Numbered from the stretch's first letter, positions 1,406 through 53,640 are shown. The stretch is 64,000 nucleotides of DNA from a virus (IMGVR_UViG_3300043256_000348:28948-92947); one strand, 5' to 3'. Notes: generated by a model from the sequence alone, not told the origin. Made by a program: numbers and translations.

Positions 1406-1758
1406 TTGCGATCCCAACGCAATTCGACGTGAAGAAAGACGACTGGTACGGGGAAAAACTCTTGCTACCGGATGGATCGCTCGTACTTTTACGTTTCCGC
1501 GGCTGGACTGTCGCAACTTCCTTTCCCGGCTGCCATTCATGCCTCGCATTGCAGTTGACCGGCCGGACCAACGCCTATCGCTACTGCGACGCAGGTGCCG
1601 AACACCTCCTATGTGTCAACGTGGCCCCCGGCGTCTGGCCCGCCCTGAAAATTAAATTCATAGAACGCAGCATGGGCTGGAATGCGTTCTGGACCTACGA
1701 TGGTTCGCCGTTTCGCGCTGAAGTATACGAGCGGATTGACTTCGGCCGCCTGCTATGA
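1402..1758 (+). CDS. Hypothetical protein
   Basis: ATGA coupling on both sides. Confidence 0.55.
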   Translation: MIAIPTQFDVKKDDWYGEKLLLPDGSLVLLRFRGWTVATSFPGCHSCLALQLTGRTNAYRYCDAGAEHLLCVNVAPGVWPALKIKFIERSMGWNAFWTYDGSPFRAEVYERIDFGRLL

Positions 1759-3002
1759 TATTTTTGTTTCATCCAAAGCCCTATCTGATCCAGCCCAACG
1801 CACAGGTGGGCCTCGGGCTGCTCTGCTTGGCGACCTACGCGAGGGAGCTTGGGGCCGAGGTCCGGGTGGTCAACGCGCAGGCGTGGACGATTGACCGGGC
1901 AGTGGAAGCGGTGCCGTCGGACGTGACTGTGTGCATGGGCGGCTGCCTGGTCGACCGGCCAATCATCGACGATCTCTCAGCGAAGCTGCGGGCGAAGGGA
2001 TGCTACGTCGTGGCCGGCGGGCCGGTGGCAGACGGCGAGGCCCTGGGGCCGAGGTGCGCGAGCCTGATCGTGCGGGGCGCAGGGGAGCCGTTCGTCCACC
2101 GGTACGTGCAGGAGGGCTGGCGGCCGAAGGGGCGGGTCAACTCACCCTACATCGTCGACTACGGGGCGTACCCGATCCCCGATCGTCGGCTGCTCGGCGG
2201 GCAGTTCGGCGGGAACATCTATCACCCGCGGTCGGGCAGGCAGACGCCGGTATCGACCACGCTCCTGACGGCGAGGGGCTGCCGGTACTCGTGCGCCTTC
2301 TGCCGGTCGGGCTCCCGCCGCGAGTTCTACGAGTACCCCCGGTCGCGGATTAGGGCCGAGCTGGAACAGATCGTGGAGCTTGGTATCCGCGACGTGCGGC
2401 TGGCGGACGACAACCTGGCATCCGGCCAGTCGAGATTCGCACGCCTGTGTGAGTTGCTGGGACAGCATGGCATCCACTGGCGGGCGAGCCTACGTACCTA
2501 TCCTAACGATGTGTCTCTGTACCGGACGATGGCCGAGAGCGGCTGCATAGAGGTGAGCCTCGGCGTCGAGAGCGCTGACCCCGCCGTGCTGAGGACGCTC
2601 CGGAAGGGCAGCCGCGTGGAATCGAACGAGCGGGCCGTGGCGAATGCTGTGGCCAGCGGAATCCCGCACGTCCGGGCCCTGATGATGATGAGCACGCCAG
2701 GGGAGACGGCCGAGACCCTCGACCTGAACAAGCGGTGGGCGGAAGCCCATCCCGAGGTGACGATCTGCCTAAGCGCCTTCGTGCCGTTCCCAGGCACGGC
2801 GATATTCCAATCGCCGGAGCGGTTCGGCTGCCGACTGGAAATGGACCTGGACAACCTGAACTTCTTCGCATTCCAGGGCGACGGGGCTTTGCCAGGGGCT
2901 CATGTGGGTATAATAAATGGTATGAGCCGTGATGAGCTGACGCGGCAGTTGCGGGCTTTCCGGGGATTTCTCGAAGAGCGGGGACAGATCAATGAAGGAT
3001 AA
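1755..3002 (+). CDS. Cobalamin-binding radical SAM protein
   Basis: GLGLLCLA...VVAGGP B12-binding N-domain; RGCRYSCAFC (CxxxCxxC); DDNL, GVES, PFPGT motifs. Confidence 0.9.
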   Translation: MIFLFHPKPYLIQPNAQVGLGLLCLATYARELGAEVRVVNAQAWTIDRAVEAVPSDVTVCMGGCLVDRPIIDDLSAKLRAKGCYVVAGGPVADGEALGPRCASLIVRGAGEPFVHRYVQEGWRPKGRVNSPYIVDYGAYPIPDRRLLGGQFGGNIYHPRSGRQTPVSTTLLTARGCRYSCAFCRSGSRREFYEYPRSRIRAELEQIVELGIRDVRLADDNLASGQSRFARLCELLGQHGIHWRASLRTYPNDVSLYRTMAESGCIEVSLGVESADPAVLRTLRKGSRVESNERAVANAVASGIPHVRALMMMSTPGETAETLDLNKRWAEAHPEVTICLSAFVPFPGTAIFQSPERFGCRLEMDLDNLNFFAFQGDGALPGAHVGIINGMSRDELTRQLRAFRGFLEERGQINEG

Positions 3003-24753: not shown

Positions 24754-25492
24754 GTGAGGGGCAAACCAGCCTGGGCGACCGGGCGTAGGAAAAGGGGGAA
24801 AGCGATGCACATTCATTTTGATCATTTCGACTGTCGGTCTTCCGTTACCACGATTCCTGTAGATCAAGAGATCCGCCTGAATGTAGAGGGCGACAGCATT
24901 ATTGGTATTTCAATGAGCGTTGAGGAGGCACAGGAATTAACGGTTGCTTTACAAGGGGCAATCGAAGAAGGTGTAAAGTGGAAAACGACTTGAATCGCCG
25001 GCGACGGCGGGGAGGTGAGAGGATGAGCCTGCAAGGCATTAAACAATTTGCCAACCTACTACGTACCATGCAGACCGTGCGTAATGAATTGCTACGAATG
25101 GGATGCGCCGAGAAACGAACGGACAAGCAGGATATTCGGCTTGCCCGCCTGGTGTCCGACGCTGACGAATGCGTCAAGGGGCGATTTACAGCCGAAACGC
25201 TCAAAATCGAACACGACTAACCCCAGCCAGCCCAACGGGCAGGAGGATAAGGTGAGTGAGCATATGAGCGCGTACGTCGCAGCTACGCACTGCGAGACAC
25301 ACGCCCAGGCAGCCCGAGAGGGTCGCTATCTACAGAATGGCTGTATCATCTGCGAGGCAGCCAAACTGGAGCAGAGCCATGCCGACCTGCTGGCCGCGTG
25401 CGAGGCAACCCTCGCCTGCGTGGGGCCACGCTTCGACACTTACCGACAACTCACTGCCGCCATCGCCAAAGCCAAGAAACCGGAGGGCAAAG

Positions 25493-27052
25493 ATGCTGAT
25501 TGAGCAACTCAAACACGCACGCCGGGTGAGCGTGCCGCTCGTGGCGGTGCAGACGCCAGACCCGGCCGCGACGATGCGAGTGATCGCGTCGGGACTGAAC
25601 GGCAAGCCAGCACCTGTGGTGGCCTGGGACATCGTCCGGGGCTGCTGGCCGGTCAACGAGGCAGGCCAAGAGGTCGCGGCCCTCACAGGAAGCGGCGATG
25701 ACGACCAGACCATCAGGCAGCCGGTGGCTTACCTGGAGTACGCGGTCAAGTTCCCGCCACGCACGATAGCATTCGCGTGCAACGCGCAAGAGTATATGGA
25801 CGACCCCGCGTTCCGGCAAGGGATTTGGAACCTCCGGGACGAGTTCAAGCGGGACCGGCGGATGCTGATCCTGCTGGCCCCGTCGATCGACCTGCCCGCG
25901 TCACTGAAGGACGACGTGGTGATGCTCGACGAATCCCTGCCGGACGGCGAGGTGCTACAGAAGATCGTCTGCGAGCAAGACGCGGCTGCCAATGCCTGCC
26001 AGGCGTGTGGCGGGGGCGGCACCGATGCCGGACTGGAGTGCGAGGACTGCCACGGGAGCGGCCAGAGCAATCGGAAGTCCGCCGACGAAGAGACTGTCGA
26101 CCAGGCGGTGGCAGCGACGCAGGGGCTCTCGGCCTTCGCCGCCGAGCAGGCCGTGGCGATGTCGCTGCGTCCCGAGGGGATCGACCTGGACCACCTCTGG
26201 GAGTCGAAGCGGCGGCAGATCGAGCAGACGCCGGGGCTGTCGGTCTGGCGGGGCGGTGAGACATTCGCCAGTGTCGGCGGGTTGGCTCATATCAAGGAAT
26301 TCATCGGGCGGGTGCTGACCGGCAAGCGGAAGCCTACTGCTATCGTGATCGTCGATGAGTTGGAAAAAATGATTGCCGGAGCCGAAGGGCAAATGAGCGA
26401 TTCGTCCGGCGTATCGCAAGGTATCTTGCAGGCGTTACTGACGCACATGCAAGATCACGAATCCCGCGGGCTGATTTTAGTAGGCCCCCCAGGTACAGGG
26501 AAGAGTCTTGTCGCAAAGGCCACCGGCGGAGAAGCGGGCATACCGACGATTTCCTGGGATAGCAACGCGATGAAAGGATCGCTAGTCGGAGAATCGGAGG
26601 GGAATGTTCGGACAGGTCTGAAGGTTATCTCTGCGGTCAGTGGCGACCATACGTTATGGGTTGCAACGTGCAACTCAGTTCGCGGAATCCCAACGGCACT
26701 GCGTCGCAGGTTTTCATATGGGACTTACTACGTCGATCTTCCGGATAGCACAGAGAAGACTGCTATCTGGAAATACTACCTTGCCGACTACGGAATCAAG
26801 TCACGCAAGTGTCCCGATGATGCGGGCTGGACGGGTGCGGAAATCAAAACGTGCTGTGAACTTTCGGATGATCTAGGCTGTACATTAAAAGAGGCGGCTG
26901 GCTACTTCGTCCCCGTGGCGAAGGCCATGCCGGACGAGATCGAGAAGCTACAGGCAGAGGCGGACGGCAAGTACATGTCGGCCAGCCACCCGTCGGTGTA
27001 TCGCCGCGACGTTCGCGACGACGGTGGGCGGGGCCGGAAAATCCAGGTATAA
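25493..27052 (+). CDS. Ycf46-like AAA+ ATPase with permuted motif order and Zn-finger insertion
   Basis: Ycf46-type N-domain, VGGL..IK, IVIVDELEK, GPPGTGKS, LVGESE, VATCN, GWTGAEI. Confidence 0.85.
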   Translation: MLIEQLKHARRVSVPLVAVQTPDPAATMRVIASGLNGKPAPVVAWDIVRGCWPVNEAGQEVAALTGSGDDDQTIRQPVAYLEYAVKFPPRTIAFACNAQEYMDDPAFRQGIWNLRDEFKRDRRMLILLAPSIDLPASLKDDVVMLDESLPDGEVLQKIVCEQDAAANACQACGGGGTDAGLECEDCHGSGQSNRKSADEETVDQAVAATQGLSAFAAEQAVAMSLRPEGIDLDHLWESKRRQIEQTPGLSVWRGGETFASVGGLAHIKEFIGRVLTGKRKPTAIVIVDELEKMIAGAEGQMSDSSGVSQGILQALLTHMQDHESRGLILVGPPGTGKSLVAKATGGEAGIPTISWDSNAMKGSLVGESEGNVRTGLKVISAVSGDHTLWVATCNSVRGIPTALRRRFSYGTYYVDLPDSTEKTAIWKYYLADYGIKSRKCPDDAGWTGAEIKTCCELSDDLGCTLKEAAGYFVPVAKAMPDEIEKLQAEADGKYMSASHPSVYRRDVRDDGGRGRKIQV

Positions 27053-27067
27053 TGAAAGGGATCATCA

Positions 27068-27349
27068 ATGGTCGTCTGGAAGTTTGTAATTCCCATGCGC
27101 GATGTATTGTCTATTCCGATGCCAATCGGTGCGGTAATCCTGCACGTAGACTGCCAGGGAGTGAAGCCGCTGCTTTGGGCACTTGTTGATCCAGAGTCGC
27201 CTGATGAACGTCGCGACTTTTGTTTCGTGAGAACGGGGCATCCTATCGAACCTCCCTCGCCGGGGCGGCAACTGGTGCATAGGGGCAGCATGCTGATGAG
27301 TCAAGGAGCATTGGTTTGCCACTTGTTTGAATATGCGAAAAGAGACTGA
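27068..27349 (+). CDS. Conserved phage hypothetical protein
   Basis: VWKF...MP.GA.IL.V..Q...LWALVDP...TGH. Confidence 0.65.
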   Translation: MVVWKFVIPMRDVLSIPMPIGAVILHVDCQGVKPLLWALVDPESPDERRDFCFVRTGHPIEPPSPGRQLVHRGSMLMSQGALVCHLFEYAKRD

Positions 27350-27710
27350 ACCGACAAGGCATGCGGATGCCGTTTAACACTTCCTGAAACCGCGTTATAA
27401 TGGAGGGTGCTATGCGACTCACACTAGACATCCTCGTGCTGGCGACGGCGACGCTCGTAGCGACGCTGACGTTGCTGGCCGGACTGCACTAACCAGGGGC
27501 CGCTGTGGCCCCGCAAACCGGAGGGCAAAGGATGAGCGCGTATACTGCAATTTTCTGTTTAATTGGTGCCACCTTATCTGTGGGGTATGGCGTTGCCGGA
27601 ATTCTCGCATTAGCCAGGGCAAAATACGACAAGGCCGCTGCTTTCCTCGCCGCGGCTTGCTTATTCGAGATCATAGTAAGTCGATGGCTTTGAAAGGAGG
27701 GCAATCGACG

Positions 27711-28604
27711 ATGGCTGACCAAGCACAAGCACTCCAAAACGGAACGCTTATCCTGGAGGTGATCTTCCACAAGCCGGGGATCACGCGTCGCGGCGACCTT
27801 GGCAAGGTCGAGACCGCCGCCGATAAGAAGCAGCTCGGCCTGTCGAAGAAGATCATCGACTCGCCCCAGTACAGGGCGGTGCTGCACGTCGCGAACGCCT
27901 GCCGCGAGTACCTCAAAAGCCTGGAGTTGGAGGCCCCGTTCAAGACCGGGCGGCACCTGCTGCCGCTGAAGCTGCTGGAGCGTGCGTACACCCGCGTGGA
28001 GGAAGCCGAGGTCGCGTACCACGAGGCGGCGGACGCATTCATTGCCGCGTACCCGGCGCAGGTCCAGGCCGCCAGGCAGTCGCTAGCCGACCAGTTCGAC
28101 GACGGCGACTACCCCGGCCTGGAGACTCTGCGAGAGCAATTCTGGGTCGAGCGCCGGGTCACGAGCTGGGACACGCCCGGCGAGGCGAAGATCGGCGAGT
28201 ACCTGTACGAGAAGGAAAAGAGCCGCGTGGCCGAGGAGCTGTCAAGCGTGGCCGAGGACGCGAAGTTGGCCCTCCGCGAGGGACTGCGAATCCTCACCGG
28301 CAAGCTGGCCGAAAGTTTGGGGCCGAAGCCGGACGGCAAGCGGCGGCGGCTGAGCGAGTCCACCGTAAAGAAGGTCACCGACTGGCTGGCATCATTCGAC
28401 GCCCGCAACGTGCTGGGCGACGCGGACCTGGGGGCCGTGGTGACCGACCTCAAGAGCGTGCTGAACAATCGCGGCGTGAAGGAACTCCGGACGAACGAAG
28501 GGATGCGAGCCGCCGTCAAGACCGAGCTGGAGCAGACAGGCAAGGCGCTGGAGGCCCTGCTTGTGGACGTGCCCGCACGGGCGATCAGCTTGGGGGACGA
28601 GTGA
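27711..28604 (+). CDS. DUF3150-like helical protein
   Basis: LSKKIID, F..G..LLP, F...DYP....LR..F; AAGGAGG SD; module context. Confidence 0.7.
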   Translation: MADQAQALQNGTLILEVIFHKPGITRRGDLGKVETAADKKQLGLSKKIIDSPQYRAVLHVANACREYLKSLELEAPFKTGRHLLPLKLLERAYTRVEEAEVAYHEAADAFIAAYPAQVQAARQSLADQFDDGDYPGLETLREQFWVERRVTSWDTPGEAKIGEYLYEKEKSRVAEELSSVAEDAKLALREGLRILTGKLAESLGPKPDGKRRRLSESTVKKVTDWLASFDARNVLGDADLGAVVTDLKSVLNNRGVKELRTNEGMRAAVKTELEQTGKALEALLVDVPARAISLGDE

Positions 28605-29003: not shown

Positions 29004-29456
29004 ATCTCGCACGTAGCTCTACTCGACCTGACTATTGACTCGCTCGACACGCTCGCTAAGGCGTGCGAGGCGATGGGCTTCACGTTCGATCGTGAAGGGA
29101 CCAACTGGAAATGGTACGGGCGCTGGGTTGGAGATTACAACGTCAAAGACGCCGCGTACAATCAGGGCATCGCGGTAGAGCGGTACGGCACGTCCGACGC
29201 GGGCGTGATCCGTGTCCCTGGTGCCGCGTATGAAGTCGGCGTCTACAAGTCGCCGAACGAGCCGGGCAAGTACCGGCTGGTCTACGATAACTTCTCGGCG
29301 GGCAAGGGACTGCACGACAGGTGCGGCCCCGGGCTCGGCCTGCTGAAGCAGCGCTATGCCGCCGAGCGAAGCAAGAAAGAAATGAAAAAGGCTGGCTGGC
29401 GTGTCCGCGAACAGAAACAAGACGACGGGCAACTGCGGCTCGTCTGCACAAGGTAA
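29004..29456 (+). CDS. DUF1257 (Ycf35-like) protein, apparent ATC start
   Basis: (M)SHV...I.SLD.L..AC..MG; YEVGV; YRLVYD.F; L.QRYA; DGQLRLV. Confidence 0.75.
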   Translation: MSHVALLDLTIDSLDTLAKACEAMGFTFDREGTNWKWYGRWVGDYNVKDAAYNQGIAVERYGTSDAGVIRVPGAAYEVGVYKSPNEPGKYRLVYDNFSAGKGLHDRCGPGLGLLKQRYAAERSKKEMKKAGWRVREQKQDDGQLRLVCTR

Positions 29457-29460
29457 AATC

Positions 29461-29766
29461 ATGGACCGCAACACCTTACGCAGAGCACTGGCCCGCGTGC
29501 CATACTATATGCGGCAAGGCGTGCTGGACTACCTGTATCAGGGCTGCCCGCCCGGCGACTTCCTGCGGGCCGTGTTAGAAAACGATCTTCACTTGGCCGG
29601 CTTGCAGGCGGACAACGAAAACCAAAGGGCTCTCATTGATTGGGTTGCCGTACTGGACGCATTGCCATTGACGATCTGGGGCAGCCGAAAGAAGGTCGAC
29701 GCCCATCTGGCCAGCCACATCCTTCGTAAACAACGAGAGGAGCAAGAAGCGTCATGCAAAAGGTAA
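29461..29766 (+). CDS. Conserved phage hypothetical protein
   Basis: G.PPGDFLRAVLENDL....AD.EN...WGS. Confidence 0.7.
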   Translation: MDRNTLRRALARVPYYMRQGVLDYLYQGCPPGDFLRAVLENDLHLAGLQADNENQRALIDWVAVLDALPLTIWGSRKKVDAHLASHILRKQREEQEASCKR

Positions 29767-29933
29767 CCATCACCATCGACACGTCAGGCAGCCCCAAGAT
29801 CGAGGTCGAGGGCGTCGCCGGGCCGGAGTGCAATACCGCGACCGAGGCCCTGGAGAAGGCCCTTGGCGAGGTCCGCTCGGACAAGTTGACGGCCGACTTC
29901 CATCGACGGGAGCGTGCCCGTGTCAAGCATTGA
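29754..29933 (+). CDS. DUF2997-family small protein (below the ORF-track cutoff)
   Basis: MQKVTITIDTSGSPKIEVEGVAGPECNTATEALEKALGEVRSDKLTADFH. Confidence 0.85.
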   Translation: MQKVTITIDTSGSPKIEVEGVAGPECNTATEALEKALGEVRSDKLTADFHRRERARVKH

Positions 29934-30168: not shown

Positions 30169-30620
30169 ACCTGATTCAACAGGCTCGCGAGATAGTCGCG
30201 GGCAAGTCGCTGTACCTGGCAGAGGTCGGTCACCTCCGGGCCCTGCTGGACGAGATCGACAGGCTTTCGAGGCCGGGCGACAAGCGGCTCGTGCGTTGCC
30301 AGGAGTGCGGCAATGAGATCCTCCTGGACAAAGGCGACTCGGAATGCTACTACTGCCACAAGCCGCTGCCAAAGCCGTGCCCCTTGTCGGAGCCGGACCG
30401 CACAAGGTTCGCCGCTTTCGCTGGGGCGGCGGCAGTGAGCATCCAACTGCACCTCGATAGAGGGGTGTCGCCGAACCGAGCCACAATGGAATCACTCGGT
30501 GAAGCGATCTTGCGGATGGCGGAGCTTGTAGGAATTTCAACTTCCGAGGCTGCGGGCTACGGCCGGCAGTTCCACGCATCCCACGACCCAAAGCGATGGC
30601 TGGAAGAAATGACAAACTGA
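30165..30620 (+). CDS. Hypothetical Zn-ribbon protein
   Basis: CQECG...CYYC; coupled start. Confidence 0.55.
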   Translation: MNLIQQAREIVAGKSLYLAEVGHLRALLDEIDRLSRPGDKRLVRCQECGNEILLDKGDSECYYCHKPLPKPCPLSEPDRTRFAAFAGAAAVSIQLHLDRGVSPNRATMESLGEAILRMAELVGISTSEAAGYGRQFHASHDPKRWLEEMTN

Positions 30621-31015
30621 CGGACGGCCGAGGCGTTCGCTTCTGCGATTACGGGTTGTCGTTGCCTACGCGAACCGCCGACTGGCCGCCGGCCGGGATT
30701 GTGCGGAGCCCGCGAACCGTACAGTCTTGCCGTTTCAACTGGCTCAAGTGTCAGATATGCGGCAGGTCGCTGCCGTTGACAGAAGATGGGCAGGTGCATC
30801 ACATCATCGGAGGCGCTGGCAGGAGCGATGAGGAGACAAATCTGTTGCGCCTCGGGGGACCCTTTGAGTGCGGCTGCCACGACGAGAGCTGGAGCGTGAT
30901 GCTACCGCTGTCGCTGTGGGCGAAGTGGAAGACGGACCGTGAGAACCTTGACTGGGCCCGGCTGGCCGTGCTGCTTGGGCACCACCTGCCGGAGCCGAAA
31001 CCGCCGGGGAGGTGA
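30596..31015 (+). CDS. HNH-like protein (start uncertain)
   Basis: CQICG...VHHIIGG...NLLRL...CGCH. Confidence 0.55.
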   Translation: MAGRNDKLTDGRGVRFCDYGLSLPTRTADWPPAGIVRSPRTVQSCRFNWLKCQICGRSLPLTEDGQVHHIIGGAGRSDEETNLLRLGGPFECGCHDESWSVMLPLSLWAKWKTDRENLDWARLAVLLGHHLPEPKPPGR

Positions 31016-45430: not shown

Positions 45431-45625
45431 ATGCTCGAAGAAGTGGTTCCTGAACTGGGGAAGGTTTTGGACAGACTGGCAAACACAGATGAGGGTCTGG
45501 CACTAACAGACGACTTGGCGACCTTGCTCGCGAGACTTTATCAGTCGCTCGTAGGGAAAGGCATTCTTGCCGAACACGCTGCCATGATGGTGTCGGGCTT
45601 CGCACGTAGTACCAGTGGGAAGTGA
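45431..45625 (+). CDS. Small hypothetical protein
   Basis: GGAGG/GAGG SD. Confidence 0.5.
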   Translation: MLEEVVPELGKVLDRLANTDEGLALTDDLATLLARLYQSLVGKGILAEHAAMMVSGFARSTSGK

Positions 45626-45629
45626 GCCC

Positions 45630-47903
45630 GTGAGTGCAATAGCCGAGATGGCGATGGCGAGTCGGGAGCGGACCGAGGCGCTGGTCTCCCGGTACCGGGC
45701 GGCCGACCCGTCAAGGCAGTCGATGCTGGCCGGCGGCGGCGTGGTGCTCGGCGAGTCCCAGCTCTCGACTGGGCTGTTCGGCGAGGGGGCTGCCGATCGG
45801 GAGATGTACTCTCACTACCGCGGCTGGACCTACGCGGCGATCCGCCCGATAGCCCAGACGATCGCCGGGCAACCGGTGAGGGTTGGGCGGGAACTGGGCC
45901 CGGCGGAGAAGCCGCGGTCGGGCAGGCTGGCCACGAAGGGGTTGCTGCCGAGCTGGCTGAAGCAGACCGAGGTCGAGCAGTACGAGACGCACCCGCTGCT
46001 TGACGCGATTGCGCGCCCGAACCCGGTGATGACCTCGTGGCACCTGCTGTACATCCTGGCCGCGTCGCTGGAGATTGCCGGCGAGCACTTGTGGTGGGTA
46101 GTGGCCGGAAAAGAGGGTCCGGTGATCTGGCCGGTGCCGTCGCCGTGGTTCGAGCCTATTCACAGGGACGGCCAGCCGTTCGCGGCGTGGTCGATCACTC
46201 CCGGCGGGCAGGGCGAGCCGGAAGAGATTCCGAACAACGAAGTCGTCTACTTCCACTATCCTGACCTTGCGGACCCGCTCGGGTGCACCTCGCCGGCCAT
46301 GACGCAGTCGAGGGCGATGTCGGCGGATGAGGCGATGCAGGACGCGCAGGCCAACACGTTCCGCAACGCGCCGTTCCCGAAGCATGCCCTGGTCGTCGGC
46401 GACGTGACGGAGGACGGCGAGAACATGGGCCGCCCTATGCTGGAGCATTGGCAGCGGCAGCAGCTCTACACCGAATTCAAGAAGATGTATTCCCAGACGG
46501 CCCAGCACGGGCTGCCGCTCATCCTCGACAGGCTGATCCAGAACGTCATCCCGCTGTCGAACAAGCCGAACGAGATGGACTTCACCGGGAGCGGCAAGGT
46601 CACGAAGGCGCGCATCTTCCAGGGGCACGGCACGAACCCGGTGATCGCGGGCGAGGTCGAGGGGGTGAACCGGGCATCGAGCTACGTGGCCCGAAGGCAC
46701 TTCGCGGACCAAACGGTAAATCCGAAGATCGAGCTGATCAGCGAGGTGCTGACCCGGGGACTGGCCCCGATCGTGGCCGGCGAGGGCGAGCGGCTAAAGG
46801 TGTGGATCGAGTCGTACCAGCCTGACGACCGGGACGAGCGGAGGAGGGACCTCGACCTGGCGGCGAAGTACGGCTCGGTGACGAAGGATGAGGTCCGCTC
46901 GACCCTGACACATCTGGGGCTCGATCCGATGAACGGCGGGGATGAGGTGGCTGCCCCGCCTACTCTGATTCCGATGCTGTCGACGGGCCCGGCGGCCAAA
47001 CGGATCGAGGGGCTCCCGGACATCGCCGAAGTTCTCGACCGCGACGAGCGGGTGAAGGCGTGGCTAAAGGCGCACGGCCGGCACGAGGACCGGCTGCTGG
47101 ACGCGGTACATGCACTGTTCTTAGAGCAGCGGGACGCGGTGACGGCGAAGCTATACGAGGTGCTCGGCGAATTGGATAAGGCAGTACGGTCGCCGGAGGG
47201 GCTGAGCGAGCTGATCTTCAACCCGGACGAGTGGGAGGAGAAGTTGATCGACGCGAGCCGGCCGTACCTACAGCGGTCCGCTTACTTCGCCGCCGTGAGA
47301 ACGCTAAACGAGATCAAGAGCCGCAAGCAGGGGCCGGAGGAACTGATAGCACAGTTGACGCCGGCGGTTCGCGGGGCGATCGACGCCGAGTTGAACACGC
47401 TGCTGTCACGGCCCTACTGGCCCGACGTGCAGCAGACGACGCGGGCGGCGTTGTCTTCCACGCTATCGGAGGGCATGGCGAACGGCGAGTCGCTGCACCA
47501 CTTGGCGGCAAGGATAGGCGACGCCCCGACAGTGCCGGTGGTCGACCTGGGGGTGTTCCCGCCGGGCACGAAGTTCGGCAGCAACGCGGTGCTGGGGAGC
47601 GACGCGAGCCGGGCGAGGGCGCTGCTGATCGCAAGAACAGAAACAACTGGTGCCTTCGGGGCGGGTACGCAGGCTCAGTTGGAGGAGTTGCGGGCCGATG
47701 GGGTGGTAGGGGAGAAGGAACTGCTGGTGATAAACGACCAGTACCTCCGCGACACCCACCGAGCCGTGGCAGACGTGGGGCCGATCCCGATCAACGAGGA
47801 TTACGACTTCGGCGGCTACAAGGCACCCTACCCGGGGCACCACTCGCTGCCGGCGAAGGAAAGAGCCCACTGCCGGTGCGATTCGGTCGCCGTAGTGGAG
47901 TAA
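45630..47903 (+). CDS. HK97-type portal fused to a Mu gpF-like minor head domain
   Basis: YAAIRPIAQTIA, HPLL....PNP, SP, FRN..P, EMDF, T.DEVR; C-terminal RALLIARTET...R.TH...HCRC. Confidence 0.9.
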   Translation: MSAIAEMAMASRERTEALVSRYRAADPSRQSMLAGGGVVLGESQLSTGLFGEGAADREMYSHYRGWTYAAIRPIAQTIAGQPVRVGRELGPAEKPRSGRLATKGLLPSWLKQTEVEQYETHPLLDAIARPNPVMTSWHLLYILAASLEIAGEHLWWVVAGKEGPVIWPVPSPWFEPIHRDGQPFAAWSITPGGQGEPEEIPNNEVVYFHYPDLADPLGCTSPAMTQSRAMSADEAMQDAQANTFRNAPFPKHALVVGDVTEDGENMGRPMLEHWQRQQLYTEFKKMYSQTAQHGLPLILDRLIQNVIPLSNKPNEMDFTGSGKVTKARIFQGHGTNPVIAGEVEGVNRASSYVARRHFADQTVNPKIELISEVLTRGLAPIVAGEGERLKVWIESYQPDDRDERRRDLDLAAKYGSVTKDEVRSTLTHLGLDPMNGGDEVAAPPTLIPMLSTGPAAKRIEGLPDIAEVLDRDERVKAWLKAHGRHEDRLLDAVHALFLEQRDAVTAKLYEVLGELDKAVRSPEGLSELIFNPDEWEEKLIDASRPYLQRSAYFAAVRTLNEIKSRKQGPEELIAQLTPAVRGAIDAELNTLLSRPYWPDVQQTTRAALSSTLSEGMANGESLHHLAARIGDAPTVPVVDLGVFPPGTKFGSNAVLGSDASRARALLIARTETTGAFGAGTQAQLEELRADGVVGEKELLVINDQYLRDTHRAVADVGPIPINEDYDFGGYKAPYPGHHSLPAKERAHCRCDSVAVVE

Positions 47904-48719: not shown

Positions 48720-48750
48720 CTTGAATCACAATCGGGTATCGGAACAACCG

Positions 48751-48787
48751 GGCCCGCGACCTTTCGAGGTTGCGGGCCTTTTTCTTT
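48751..48787 (+). terminator. Intrinsic terminator / attenuator upstream of the protease gene
   Basis: ggcccgcgacct-ttcg-aggttgcgggcc followed by TTTTTCTTT. Confidence 0.75.
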
Positions 48788-48801
48788 GCCGGGAGCGAGA
48801 C

Positions 48802-51800
48802 ATGGCGACAGTCGAAACGGTGGACGCGGCTGCCCCGATCCTGGACAGCCTACGGAGCCGGAGGCCGGACGGGCGGTGGGGTATCGGCACGGCGAAGAGC
48901 TACCTTGATGCGACGCCACCGAACCTGTTCGACGTTTCACTCGATGAGTGGCAGGCGGTCATGGAGAAGGCCGCCGACACCCTCACTTACTGCGAGCGGG
49001 AAGCGACTATCGAGGCGCTGTCGTGGAGTGTGCTAGGGGAGGAGGGCCGCGACCGGCTCGGCCGGAATATGCCGTTGCTGCCGGTCAAGCGTGCGAAGAA
49101 GCCGGCGAACATCGAGGGGTTCGTCCTCGCGTTCGACTACACGCTGACGACGATTGACGAGGACCGGGACTTCGACGTGCTGGAGCCGAAGGGGGCGACG
49201 GTCGATATGCTCGGGCCGTTGCTGTTCAACCACGTCACGTTGCAGCCGATCGGCAAGCCGCTGAAGATCCTCAAGCAGAACAGCAAGCGGCTCGCAGAGC
49301 AGTCGGCCATTATGGACTTCCCCTTCGGCCGGGACGTGGCCCAGATGATCGAGTTCCAGGTGCTCCGGCGAATGTCGCACGGCTTCCTGCCGACGAAGTA
49401 CGAAGAGCGCACGCCGAAGAAGGCCGACGACGAAGACGAGGCCGTGGGCTGGCACATCATGGAGTACGAGATCATGGAGCGGTCCGTGGTGTCGGTGGCC
49501 AGCAACCGCGGTGCGATCATCGAGGCGTGGAACCTGCTGGGGGAGAAGGGCTTCCACGACGACAGAGTGAAGGGCTGGCTGAAGAGCGTCTATGAGGCGA
49601 GGCCCGTGATCGGCAGAGGCTTCGCACCCGACCGTTGCCTGATCTGTCACAACACTTCGGCCAGGCAGGCTCCGCACCATCAATGCAACTGCTGCGACTC
49701 TCCCGCCCCCGACCCGTCCGATTGCGACCAGACGCCGCCCGCGTTTCGGTGGCCAGCAACCGCGGTGCGATCATCTGATGTGGTTGACCCGGCGAAAGAA
49801 GCAGAGCCTCAGTCACTTCAGTATCCGGCAGGCAAGTCAAGTAAGAGGCTGACTGAAGACGGCGTGGAGACGTGCGAACTGTGCGATGCCCCGGCAGTGA
49901 CAACCACAAACATGCGTCACCAGTGGTGCGAAGACCATACGCCGGAAGTATGCAAAAGAAAAACCGCATTGATCCCCTTCAATAAATCAGCCGGCTCGAC
50001 GTTTGACGTTTGGCGGGAGCACCTGGAGCCGGCCAAGCTGGAGTACGACTGGGCGAGCCGCTACATCGGCTGCCAGGTCAAGCACCTGTTCTGGGTGCAC
50101 ACCAAGGTTCCGAAGGCGCGGATCGGCTCGTGGCTGACGGGGCTGCGTGAGGTGCTGGCCGACTACAGCGTCGAGGACACCCGCCACATTTCAAGCGGCG
50201 GCGAGGAGCTGCCGCCGAAGTATGAGATCATCCAGCTCACCCCAGACAAGGCCGATGACTTCCTGGTTCAAGGCTTGCAGTTCCGCTGCGGGCCGGACCG
50301 CAAGTTCGTACTCGGCTTCGAGCCGTACTACGGCATGCTGGAGGTGATATTCTACACGTCCGACAACGAGGCGGCCAAGCAGTTCGCACGCGAGGTGATC
50401 GGCAAGACGTGGGAGTGGTCGCGGGTGAACAACTTTCTCAAGGGGCAGGCGTTCAGCTTGACAGGTGGCTTCCTACCGAAGACCGGCGAGCGATGGGACG
50501 GGCTGTTCCTTCCCGATCGTAACAAGCGGCCGGTCATGCGCGCCGTGGAGGCGGTCAACGAGAAGCGGGCGGCCGCGTCCAACCGCGGCATGATCCTGAT
50601 GGGCCCGCCGGGAACCGGCAAGACGCTGTCGGCTCGCATCGTCCGGAACCTCGCCGACGCGACGTTCATCTGGGTGGCGGCGAGGGACTTCTGGAACGTT
50701 GGGGCGTTCGGAGCCTTCACTCACTCGTTCGATCTGGCCCGGGAGCTGGCCCCCTCGGTCATCTGCTTCGAGGATGTGGACAACTGGATCAATGGGGGCG
50801 GGACGGAGGAGTTGCTGAAGAGCGAGATGGACGGCATGAACCGGTCATCGGGCGTGCTCACGCTGCTAACGACGAACTACCCGGAGCTGATCCCGGACGC
50901 GCTGATCGACCGCCCCGGGCGGTTCCACGACGTGTTGCTGTTCGACCTGCCGGACGGGAAAGTCAGGGGCGAGATGCTCGCCGCGTGGCTGCCGGAAGCG
51001 CCGGGGAAGGATCGGAAGAGGGCGGTTGGGAAGACGGACGGCTACAGCGGGGCCCACATCTTCGAGCTGGCCGAGTACGCCAAGACGCTGCGAGACGAGG
51101 ACTCGCTTTCGATCGGCGAGGCGTTGCTGAAAGCCATCGACAAGATCGAAGAGCAACGGGAGCTAATCACGGGCGTGCAGCTTGAGGGCAGCCGCTACAA
51201 GCCGAACCGCTCAGGTTTCCCGGGGCAATTCGGCGCGTTGATACCGGCCAAGGTGTTCGCTTTCGGAAACAAGACAGAGAAGACGGTCCCCGGCAACCCG
51301 TCCGGCGGATCGGGCGACGGCACCGAGGGCACGTGGAGCAAGCTGAAGCTGAGCGACTTCACCGACAAAGACTGGGGCGACCTGTCGGCGGCCGAGAAGG
51401 GCAATATTAAGAAATACTTTGCCTGGCACCCGGGCACCGTCGAGACGTTCGCCGACCTGAAGCTGGGGCACCACTTTGCGTCCGGTGACGACGCGGGCAA
51501 GGCGAGCCTGAACGGGGTGCGGAACGCGCTGGCCAGGGCGAACCAGGTGGACGGGATCGGCGACGAACTGGAACGGGTGATGACGCATCTACGGGCACAC
51601 CTGCCGGAGCGGTCGGTCGTTATTGCTCATCTAGCTGTCGGTCTCGACGACGATGCGAAGCGGTGGCTCGCTGCAATAGAAAAGCTCGAAGAGGCGTGGG
51701 CTCAAGCGACGGGTAAGCGAAGCGGGGACGAAAAGGAAACACTATGCAAGCAAACGCTCGCATGGCTGGCGGCTGCGGCGACGGAGGAGGAGTTGAGGCA

Positions 51801-51876
51801 GGCCAAGGCAGTGATCGACGCGAGGTTGCGGGAGAAACGCAACCGGAAGCTGAGGAAGCTGTTTCGCCTGAGATGA
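48802..51876 (+). CDS. HK97-type prohead protease fused to an AAA+ ATPase and an extra C-terminal domain
   Basis: DRDFDVL.PKG, LLFNH...PIGK, MSHGF, ERSVVSVASN..A; then GPPGTGKT, ICFEDVD, TTN.PE...ALIDRPGRF, GYSGA. Confidence 0.85.
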   Translation: MATVETVDAAAPILDSLRSRRPDGRWGIGTAKSYLDATPPNLFDVSLDEWQAVMEKAADTLTYCEREATIEALSWSVLGEEGRDRLGRNMPLLPVKRAKKPANIEGFVLAFDYTLTTIDEDRDFDVLEPKGATVDMLGPLLFNHVTLQPIGKPLKILKQNSKRLAEQSAIMDFPFGRDVAQMIEFQVLRRMSHGFLPTKYEERTPKKADDEDEAVGWHIMEYEIMERSVVSVASNRGAIIEAWNLLGEKGFHDDRVKGWLKSVYEARPVIGRGFAPDRCLICHNTSARQAPHHQCNCCDSPAPDPSDCDQTPPAFRWPATAVRSSDVVDPAKEAEPQSLQYPAGKSSKRLTEDGVETCELCDAPAVTTTNMRHQWCEDHTPEVCKRKTALIPFNKSAGSTFDVWREHLEPAKLEYDWASRYIGCQVKHLFWVHTKVPKARIGSWLTGLREVLADYSVEDTRHISSGGEELPPKYEIIQLTPDKADDFLVQGLQFRCGPDRKFVLGFEPYYGMLEVIFYTSDNEAAKQFAREVIGKTWEWSRVNNFLKGQAFSLTGGFLPKTGERWDGLFLPDRNKRPVMRAVEAVNEKRAAASNRGMILMGPPGTGKTLSARIVRNLADATFIWVAARDFWNVGAFGAFTHSFDLARELAPSVICFEDVDNWINGGGTEELLKSEMDGMNRSSGVLTLLTTNYPELIPDALIDRPGRFHDVLLFDLPDGKVRGEMLAAWLPEAPGKDRKRAVGKTDGYSGAHIFELAEYAKTLRDEDSLSIGEALLKAIDKIEEQRELITGVQLEGSRYKPNRSGFPGQFGALIPAKVFAFGNKTEKTVPGNPSGGSGDGTEGTWSKLKLSDFTDKDWGDLSAAEKGNIKKYFAWHPGTVETFADLKLGHHFASGDDAGKASLNGVRNALARANQVDGIGDELERVMTHLRAHLPERSVVIAHLAVGLDDDAKRWLAAIEKLEEAWAQATGKRSGDEKETLCKQTLAWLAAAATEEELRQAKAVIDARLREKRNRKLRKLFRLR

Positions 51877-51924: not shown

Positions 51925-53640
51925 ATGGAACTGACAGATGCGTTAAAGAAGTGGGCCGTCGAGAACCTCGACATGGCCGCCGACGCCTCCGATGACGAGT
52001 ACAAGGCGGCCATCACTGGGGCGATCTCCGCCGGCACGCTGACGGCCAGGAAGTACGCCGAGCTGATGGCGGAGGACCCGGACGTGAAAGAGGAGCTGGG
52101 CAAGCTGTTGGCTCAGGCCAATGCCCCGGTGATCGCGGGGCTGGGCAAGGTGGCCGACGCGGTCGGCAGCCTGGCTGAGAAGATCCAGGCAGGACCGCCG
52201 AAGACGACCCTGGAATCGACCGTCGAGACGAGTATGGCGAGCGCCGGCGAAGGTGCCGACGACATCGACGGCAAGATCGAGCGGCAAGTCGAGAAGATGC
52301 TTGCCGAGAAAAACCAGAACGGCAACGGCGAGCGGGCCGACTTCGCGGCCGCGTTCATGGCCAAGGCCGCGATGGGCGGAAGCAACCCGCGGGTGAAGGC
52401 CGAGGTCGATAAGTACTCGACCCAGCGCAAGTCGCTGGTCTGCCCGGAGTTCATCGGTGCGGGCAAAAGGCACCCGCTGGCGGGCGAGCCGGCCGTGCGG
52501 TTCAACCACGCGATGGAGGCCCCGAGCGAGGCGGACTTCGCGATCTGCGGGGCGTTCGCCAAGTTCCAGTTGCTGCGCGGCACCGTCGGCCCCACGGCCT
52601 GCGAGGCCCTGCTGACGGAGCACGAGCGGAAGCTGGTCCTCCACGCGCTGCACGAGATGAGGTGGACCGGCGTGGTCGGGGTGATGGGCGGGCAGGAGGC
52701 CCGGATCGACCTGAGCGGTACGGAGGTCGACGACCGGAAGCTGACTCCGCCGGAACGCAAGGCGATCCTCGACGACACGACCAGCGGCGGCACCTACGCG
52801 GTGCCCCGCGTGTTCGACGAGGCGATCTCGGCCGCCCCGATCCTCTTCGGCGAGCTGGCCCCGCTGGTCGACATGCAGAACCTCGTGAGGGGTGCCGTGG
52901 TCGACGGCAGCACGTGGACCGACCCGAGCTTCATCTCCCAGACCGAGGGCTCGGCGTTCAGCCTGGTCAGCACGGCCAGCCTGATCGGAAACCTCGACAC
53001 GTCGATCTTCAACACCGTGGCCGGGATCGAGCTGGGCCTGGACTGGGAGAGCGACACGCCGATCAACTTCGGCACGTACATCGTGCAGAGGCTCGGCATG
53101 AAGCTGAAGGAGTGGCTGGACGAGCAGATCGCCATCGGCGACGGCACGACGGAGCCGACCGGGATCTTCACGGCTTCCGGCGTCAACACGTCCAACTCCA
53201 GCAACAGCACCGGCGGCCCGTTTACGCTCGGCGACTTCGAGAAGCTGGCGTTCGGCCTGACAAAGGCGATGCGTGCCAGCAACCCGAGGTCGAACGTCTA
53301 CGTGACGTCGGACTACATGTACAGGCAGGCCCGAGGCGTGCCTGTACATACGACCGACGCCCGGCGGCTGCTTGGCATGGACCACTCGGCGTACACGATC
53401 CTGGAGCACCCGTGCAAGATCCAGGACTCGATCGCCAATGGGTCCATCGCGTTCGCGAACCTGGCCTACTACCGGATGTACCGCCGGCTGGGCATCCAGA
53501 TCCGCAACGTGATCGAGGGCCAGACCCTCGCGCTGAAAAACACGCGGCTAATCATCGTCCGCGCGCGGTACGGTGGCCAGCCGACGCTGGGAGTCTCGAT
53601 CAACAAAATGACCGACGGCCCGACCAGCTACGGGAATTAG
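51925..53640 (+). CDS. Major capsid protein (HK97 fold) with N-terminal scaffold region
   Basis: SGGTYAVP...I; EG; LDEQIAIGDGTTEPTGI; strong codon bias; AAGGAG SD. Confidence 0.92.
   Translation: MELTDALKKWAVENLDMAADASDDEYKAAITGAISAGTLTARKYAELMAEDPDVKEELGKLLAQANAPVIAGLGKVADAVGSLAEKIQAGPPKTTLESTVETSMASAGEGADDIDGKIERQVEKMLAEKNQNGNGERADFAAAFMAKAAMGGSNPRVKAEVDKYSTQRKSLVCPEFIGAGKRHPLAGEPAVRFNHAMEAPSEADFAICGAFAKFQLLRGTVGPTACEALLTEHERKLVLHALHEMRWTGVVGVMGGQEARIDLSGTEVDDRKLTPPERKAILDDTTSGGTYAVPRVFDEAISAAPILFGELAPLVDMQNLVRGAVVDGSTWTDPSFISQTEGSAFSLVSTASLIGNLDTSIFNTVAGIELGLDWESDTPINFGTYIVQRLGMKLKEWLDEQIAIGDGTTEPTGIFTASGVNTSNSSNSTGGPFTLGDFEKLAFGLTKAMRASNPRSNVYVTSDYMYRQARGVPVHTTDARRLLGMDHSAYTILEHPCKIQDSIANGSIAFANLAYYRMYRRLGIQIRNVIEGQTLALKNTRLIIVRARYGGQPTLGVSINKMTDGPTSYGN

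Follow-up and report, generated by a model that had tools for sequence, protein, structure and literature searches.

We describe here a gene in a 64,000-nt stretch of viral DNA (IMGVR_UViG_3300043256_000348:28948-92947, hereafter the window), which carries genes for portal, capsid, prohead protease, helicase and other phage proteins; the IMG/VR virus record that it comes from is complete, at 92,947 bp, and has direct terminal repeats. The gene encodes protein P0001 (519 amino acids, aa), likely a working ATPase of the classical AAA type whose catalytic domain is naturally block-swapped, with the segment carrying the Walker B motif standing in front of the segment carrying Walker A. Classification, profiles and annotation of AAA+ proteins take it as constant that Walker A, Walker B and sensor-1 follow in this order, and our literature searches brought up no AAA+ protein described as having Walker B before Walker A. 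P0001 and its relatives are probably the first recognised natural AAA+ family with a non-circularly permuted ASCE (additional strand, catalytic E) core, Walker B coming before the P-loop, that still acts as an active ring ATPase; the family would comprise no fewer than 150 clusters (50% identity) and could run to a few thousand.

Motif order and its spread among relatives

The motif order was read from the translation of P0001, for which the N-termini of homologs favour a start at 25493 over an upstream in-frame ATG at 25337. From the N-terminal side, the catalytic domain shows VGGL (aa 261-264), IVIVDELEK (aa 284-292, from nt 26342), DSSGVSQ (aa 303-309), LLTHMQD (aa 315-321), GLILVGPPGTGKS (aa 326-338), LVGESE (aa 364-369), WVATCN (aa 389-394, from nt 26657) and RRRF (aa 404-407). 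Walker A is GPPGTGKS (aa 331-338), which fits the pattern GxxGxGK[ST], and Walker B is IVIVDE (aa 284-289), a hydrophobic strand with DE at its end. Sensor-1 (ATCN, N394) and the second region of homology with the arginine fingers RRRF (R405/R406) are also present, and the DSSGVSQ loop occupies the position of pore loop 2. The initial annotation of this locus had claimed that Walker B precedes Walker A with every catalytic motif kept, and this is borne out both by the translation and by homology that is itself out of order.

Three separate alignments document this homology. In a phmmer search of the PDB, aa 323-374 aligned with residues 520-571 of Cdc48, yet aa 281-329 aligned with residues 581-629, so that the Walker B of P0001 falls on the Walker B of Cdc48 D2. 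The Pfam AAA model (PF00004) scored 58.8 bits, above its cut-off, as two partial stretches, the better of which spans profile positions 1-53 of 131; a colinear match to this model running from Walker A through Walker B to sensor-1 is absent from P0001. A profile built from 120 canonical-order phage relatives, of the type of the sister family phrog_8638, matched P0001 in four pieces, with profile positions 21-273 on aa 5-271, 353-392 on aa 283-323, 292-351 on aa 324-383 and 396-443 on aa 388-434. Out-of-order partial matches to AAA profiles had been predicted in the initial annotation, and at the level of sequence the three alignments are real out-of-order homology and no chance resemblance. 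When aa 283-323 and aa 324-385 were exchanged in silico, the pieces joined into a single colinear match (profile positions 21-443, 148 bits). We therefore regard the event as a clean swap of two adjacent blocks, X (about 40 residues) and Y (about 60 residues), with breakpoints within loops.

The catalytic domain would accordingly read as a natural, non-circular permutation, in which b3(Walker B)-loop-a3 has been exchanged with b1(Walker A)-a1-b2-loop-a2, giving the putative chain order a0, b3, a3, b1, a1, b2, a2, b4, a4, b5, lid (Table 1). No model in Pfam, NCBIfam or PHROG covers the permuted family as such, and current profiles match only half a domain because of the permuted order, which leaves permuted phage ATPases under-annotated.

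All of the 120 top-ranking homologs, at 46-76% identity and with 97-100% coverage in a single local alignment each, have the permuted order. Searching 1.84 billion cluster representatives with a profile returned 3,174 matches at E < 1e-30, the best 150 of which are separate 50%-identity clusters, permuted and matched over their full length (E <= 1e-166). The isolated Tunturiibacter phage Tunturi_3 encodes a permuted relative, gp103, that is 36% identical to P0001, and the 120 nearest relatives of gp103 are permuted as well. Relatives are encoded on 190 IMG/VR contigs, and the permuted order was present in all of the loci fetched (80/80), which come from many different metagenomes. Overall, about 450 relatives were examined and all of them keep the order; neighbours of the family in the ESM Atlas are 57-100% viral. 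Homologs with the same motif order, for which the initial annotation had proposed a search, are thus known from hundreds of proteins and from one isolated phage genome.

This distribution bears on the reading that the motif order arose through an error in assembling or annotating this contig, which we consider extremely improbable. Hundreds of proteins from independent metagenomes and an isolated phage share the order, the reading frame of P0001 is open and colinear with all homologs, and the record is a complete genome with terminal repeats. Misassembly of the P0001 locus is ruled out, because the permuted order is shared family-wide, in many independent assemblies and in an isolated phage.

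Predicted fold and residue conservation of the ATPase domain

We predicted the structure of P0001 with AlphaFold2 from a 120-sequence alignment (predicted local distance difference test, pLDDT, 94.7; predicted template modelling score, pTM, 0.87). In the ATPase domain of this model, helices are found at aa 265-276 (a0), 307-321 (a3), 337-348 (a1), 365-383 (a2) and 401-406 (a4), together with exactly five strands, at aa 283-287, 325-330, 352-355, 387-393 and 411-413. Five is the strand count of the canonical AAA core; there is no strand between helix a2 and the sensor-1 strand, and 283-287 is the sole strand free to serve as b3. Superposition with VIA-align, a sequential method that cannot place a permuted block, laid aa ~245-503 on p97 D2, Vps4, spastin and FIGNL1 (Z 16-17, root-mean-square deviation 2.5-2.9 Å), covering 199-215 of ~254 residues, that is, roughly all but the 41-residue moved block. 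Both the number of strands and the superposition statistics lead us to infer that strand 283-287 of the predicted model sits between b2 and b4, and the folded domain would most likely retain the five-stranded parallel sheet of order 2-3-4-1-5. Mean-field direct-coupling analysis (DCA), run on 383 and then on 452 family sequences (effective number of sequences, Meff, ~268), gave strand-strand couplings among its top pairs, namely D288-T392 (z 4.9), V285-D356 (z 3.4), I286-T392 and I286-S354, a hint that the Walker B strand may lie beside b4 and b2.

The Walker B block could instead lie outside its own b3 slot, swapped into a neighbouring ring subunit or packed elsewhere, and this would mean a truly different sheet topology. 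Such an arrangement could be accommodated by the inability of sequential aligners to locate the moved block and by the shortness of the helix-to-strand linkers a3-b1 and a2-b4 (~3 residues). However, the monomer model is confident at aa 283-330 (pLDDT 85-97 by block), DSSP assigns 283-287 as a strand, hence hydrogen-bonded in a sheet, the strand is uniformly hydrophobic, like buried central strands, and the strongest strand couplings of the block point to b4 and b2. We judge a displaced block to be improbable.

With the Walker B strand in its own slot, the three changed connections (a0 to b3, a3 to b1 and a2 to b4) would all be helix-to-strand loops along the sheet edge that lies across from the nucleotide site, and by analogy with ordinary AAA proteins both pore-loop contexts, b2-loop-a2 and b3-loop-a3, would be intact. 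Their position on that edge would let the P-loop, the Walker B acids, sensor-1 and the arginine fingers meet as they do in ordinary AAA proteins. The rewiring would be tolerated because only connections away from the nucleotide site change and both pore-loop contexts are preserved. The presence of the permuted order in a large conserved family would then mean that the fold tolerates three rewired connections away from the active site and, if true, that the sequence in which core strands emerge from the ribosome is inessential for folding or catalysis of the AAA+ fold.

Residue conservation was counted in the 452-sequence family alignment. E289, K337 and N394 are each present in 452/452 sequences, as is S or T at position 338 (452/452). 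R406, G331 and G334 are each found in 451/452 and R405 in 421/452, and position 288 is D in 447 sequences and E in 5. Judged from these counts, purifying selection acts on both exchanged blocks.

We also looked, in the model and in the alignment, for a second DE motif after Walker A that might occupy the Walker B position, an outcome that the initial annotation had singled out as speaking against the permutation, and saw none. After Walker A, conserved acidic residues are confined to two columns, D356 where b2 ends and E369 within VGESE; canonical relatives that have their own Walker B also show D356 and the VGxSE motif. Positions 385-386, ahead of the sensor-1 strand, are variable, and between a2 and sensor-1 there is neither a strand nor a conserved acidic pair, so that this candidate for Walker B was rejected.

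Inteins were detected in five members of the family (P0244, P0344, P0358, P0321 and P0371), some with LAGLIDADG or HNH homing endonucleases. Their three insertion points lie in the P-loop (GPPG|C.. and GTGK|C..) and in sensor-1 (IAT|C..HN|CNS). Inteins usually occupy conserved, function-critical sites in active enzymes.

These data can be set against the possibility that the protein is a pseudo-enzyme, which has an AAA-like shape and may bind nucleotide, has lost hydrolysis, and serves as a scaffold or nucleotide sensor among its conserved neighbours. Such a loss would fit the absence of the pore-loop-1 aromatic, the variability of E369 and the degeneracy of the other, N-terminal AAA domain of this protein. 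On the other hand, the residues needed only for hydrolysis (E289, N394 and R406) are invariant or nearly so in 452 diverged sequences, inteins target the P-loop and sensor-1, and the Leu in pore loop 1 is found also in the canonical sister family. Since the sister family has this Leu too, it is no consequence of the permutation. We regard the loss of hydrolysis as improbable and favour a working ATPase, probably, by analogy, a ring-forming remodelling or unfolding ATPase.

Several points weigh against this working, block-swapped ATPase. The slot given to strand 283-287 is deduced from the statistics above, and AlphaFold2 may draw on the AAA fold it has learned. DCA is noisy: the positive control b1-b4 gave no signal, and blocks that reflect gaps or subfamilies, for example aa 280-282 paired with 346-349, make up most of its highest-ranked pairs. 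At the pore-loop-1 position there is a Leu in place of the usual aromatic, and E369 of VGESE is only 61% conserved, which together leave threading of protein through the pore unassured. The 'rewired but functional' topology put forward in the initial annotation is nevertheless supported by the catalytic residues that are invariant in both blocks of the alignment and by the confident five-strand prediction.

N-terminal domain, origin and gene neighbourhood

The N-terminal domain lacks nucleotide motifs and has QTPDPAAT at the place of the P-loop. Searched with Foldseek, the whole model matched p97, Rix7 and Drg1 at E ~1e-12 over ~610 columns, and VIA-align of the whole model with p97/Cdc48 D1+D2 gave Z 18-19 with 395-400 residues aligned. 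Because the whole model aligns across D1+D2 of tandem AAA proteins, we assign aa 1-250 as a degenerate AAA-like domain; with two AAA-fold domains per chain, the predicted model has the tandem (type II) AAA architecture. The same domain matches the N-domain of the canonical phage relatives (profile positions 21-273). An origin of the Walker B block as a remnant of the first domain was rejected, as the block follows both the lid of the first domain and helix a0 of the second.

A CxxCxGxG zinc finger had been placed by the initial annotation between the N-terminal domain and the ATPase. Its presence was confirmed, as two units (C169..C172 and C183..C186; aa 169-190, nt ~25997-26060), whereas its place strictly between the domains was not, since the model puts both units within the N-terminal domain's helical lid. 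The match to Pfam DnaJ_CXXCXGXG (PF00684) is weak (14.4 bits vs a cut-off of 32.7), and the model has short hairpins there. Among the aligned sequences, only P0001 and its closest relatives P0002 and P0005 have the insert, in a longer version in P0005.

GC content at third codon positions (GC3) is lower over the ATPase stretch than over its flanks, as the initial annotation had noticed: aa 1-259 and the C-terminus both have 0.85, against 0.57 for aa 260-466, and most other phage genes have 0.77-0.92. Low-GC3 patches are present at 26270-26890 (0.57; confined to the ATPase domain of the gene), 27068-27349 (0.56) and 24754-24993 (0.49). Compared with its closest relatives, P0001 is 0.69-0.75 similar in the ATPase domain, usually the best conserved part, and 0.91 similar in the preceding lid. 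The sequence pattern points to recent recombination, in which a relative of lower GC, itself already permuted, supplied a patch. In this phage the dip is mosaicism of local extent, with no connection to the family-wide permutation.

A FastTree phylogeny was computed from swapped-back ATPase domains, with a narrow canonical sample. In this tree, a branch with Shimodaira-Hasegawa-like support of 93 separates the 65 permuted rows from the others, with one change of state, and the sequences are consistent with a single origin of the permutation, although the canonical-order sample is narrow. The permutation would have arisen once, in the Ycf46-like phage ATPase lineage whose canonical relatives are phrog_8638. 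A tandem Y-X duplication from which the first Y and the last X were then lost may be the likely route, although it stays conjectural, as no duplication intermediate (Y-X-Y-X or X-Y-X) was seen among ~500 sequences, a further point against. The arrangement would now be fixed in a large tailed-phage family with a degenerate N-terminal AAA-like domain.

Table 1. Features of the permuted ATPase gene and of the genes that follow it in the window
Feature	Position (nt)	Residues	Strand	Remarks
Permuted AAA ATPase gene	25493..27052	519 aa	+	protein P0001
Degenerate AAA-like (D1-like) domain including helical lid	25493..26242	aa 1-250	+	structure and profile match
Two-unit CxxCxGxG insert, probable zinc ribbon	25991..26086	aa 167-198	+	in the lid of the N-terminal domain
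Helix a0 with VGGL motif, usual entry of the AAA domain	26258..26323	aa 256-277	+	translation, model, profile
Moved block X: Walker B strand (IVIVDELEK, D288/E289), DSSGVSQ loop, helix a3 (LLTHMQD)	26339..26461	aa 283-323	+	
Block Y: strand b1, P-loop (GPPGTGKS, K337), a1, b2, SLVGESE loop, a2	26462..26647	aa 324-385	+	
Strand b4 with sensor-1 (ATCN, N394), arginine-finger helix (RRRF, R405/R406), strand b5	26648..26737		+	
Helical lid of the ATPase domain with conserved WTGAEI motif	26738..27007	aa 416-505	+	
DUF7352 gene	27068..27349	93 aa	+	GC3 0.56; no conserved module member, probably inserted
DUF3150-like gene, conserved neighbour	27657..28604	315 aa	+	homologs in 77/81 loci
DUF1257 (Ycf35-like) gene, conserved neighbour	29073..29456		+	
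Small DUF2997-like gene, conserved neighbour	29754..29933		+	profile seeded from Tunturi_3 gp101 and L338C_053

The neighbourhood of the gene was surveyed in 81 permuted loci, in which a partner gene was counted when it was on the same strand and no more than 5 kb away. DUF1257-like genes were found near the permuted ATPase in 75/81 loci, DUF2997-like genes in 74/81 and homologs of the 315-aa neighbour in 77/81. The two seeds of the DUF2997-like profile are themselves Pfam DUF2997 matches. In the family of the 315-aa neighbour, 17 of 55 aligned members match PF11348 (DUF3150), and we take this neighbour to be a diverged DUF3150 protein. Its model (pLDDT 92.5) shows long helical hairpins and a small sheet; Foldseek against the PDB gave no match at E <= 0.001, and a wide VIA-align search found only generic helical bundles (Z <= 9.6). 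DUF1257 and DUF2997 genes lie downstream of the permuted form (in the window and in Tunturi_3) and of the canonical form (in phage L338C) alike; in Tunturi_3, the ATPase is accompanied by DUF1257 and DUF2997 but no DUF3150 gene was identified. The permuted ATPase family would work in a conserved module with the DUF1257, DUF2997 and DUF3150 proteins, and our observations draw attention to this widespread phage module. Nothing relevant on DUF1257, DUF2997 or DUF3150 in phages was found in the literature.

Other features of the window were recorded in passing. Just 3' of the module, a weak match to an HNH endonuclease (E 0.004) lies at 30596-31015 (+), and near the window start a radical S-adenosylmethionine (SAM) protein is encoded at 1755-3002 (+). 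A 1,051-aa open reading frame (48721-51876, +) lies between the portal (45615-47903) and capsid (51925-53640) genes. A Peptidase_S78 Caudovirus prohead protease domain occupies aa 130-268 of its product and an AAA domain in canonical order aa 624-742; to find the two fused is unusual in a gene for head maturation. Rfam gave no match anywhere in the window.

Comparison with known systems

The best viral structure matches of P0001 are phage proteins named 'ycf46' (TMq 0.60-0.71), a name shared with the cyanobacterial and plastid AAA protein Ycf46. In cyanobacteria, the genes for DUF2997 and Ycf35 (DUF1257) are adjacent (PMC4284462). The phage module resembles the DUF2997-Ycf35(DUF1257)-Fed7 cluster in its DUF2997 and DUF1257 neighbours, and it differs from that cluster in that it adds DUF3150 and is without a ferredoxin.

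Closest to the permuted family stands phrog_8638, a canonical-order sister family of 'Ycf46-like' AAA ATPases from tailed phages of ~80-110 kb, with examples such as Rhizobium phage vB_RleS_L338C gp050, Rhodobacter phage RcMenchie gp62 and Aeromonas phage HJ05 gp65. The two share their length (~520-570 aa), a homologous N-terminal domain and the motifs VGGL, GPPGTGKS, SLVGxSE, DExxK..DSGVSQ..MQE and sensor-1, and at least L338C also has the downstream DUF1257 and DUF2997 genes. They differ in that phrog_8638 runs Walker A > VGxSE > Walker B > sensor-1, whereas the window protein is permuted. The phrog_8638 profile matched the L338C, HJ05 and RcMenchie proteins in one near-full-profile stretch (1e-112 to 9e-224); on P0001 it gave four out-of-order stretches (2e-45, ~22% identity), and on Tunturi_3 gp103 the N-domain alone was aligned (7.8e-40). 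With the same gene module around both, phrog_8638 and the permuted family form a matched natural pair for asking how such rewiring evolves, and the pair may serve the study of folding order, of domain evolution by duplication and deletion, and of permuted-ATPase design.

The classical AAA clade (p97/Cdc48 D1-D2, Vps4, spastin and FIGNL1) provides the best sequence and structure matches, and the Walker A and B, sensor-1 and arginine-finger motifs of P0001 are of the classical type. In contrast to that clade, the order of its core differs, ~40-55 residues cannot be aligned sequentially, its first domain has no nucleotide motifs and its pore loop 1 has no aromatic.

Finally, the circularly permuted P-loop GTPases of the YlqF/YjeQ type, a precedent from a different class, have reordered NTPase motifs and keep both fold and activity. 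In those GTPases the whole G domain is circularly permuted, whereas the family described here has an AAA+ (ASCE) core in which two neighbouring internal blocks are swapped and the ends of the domain stay fixed.

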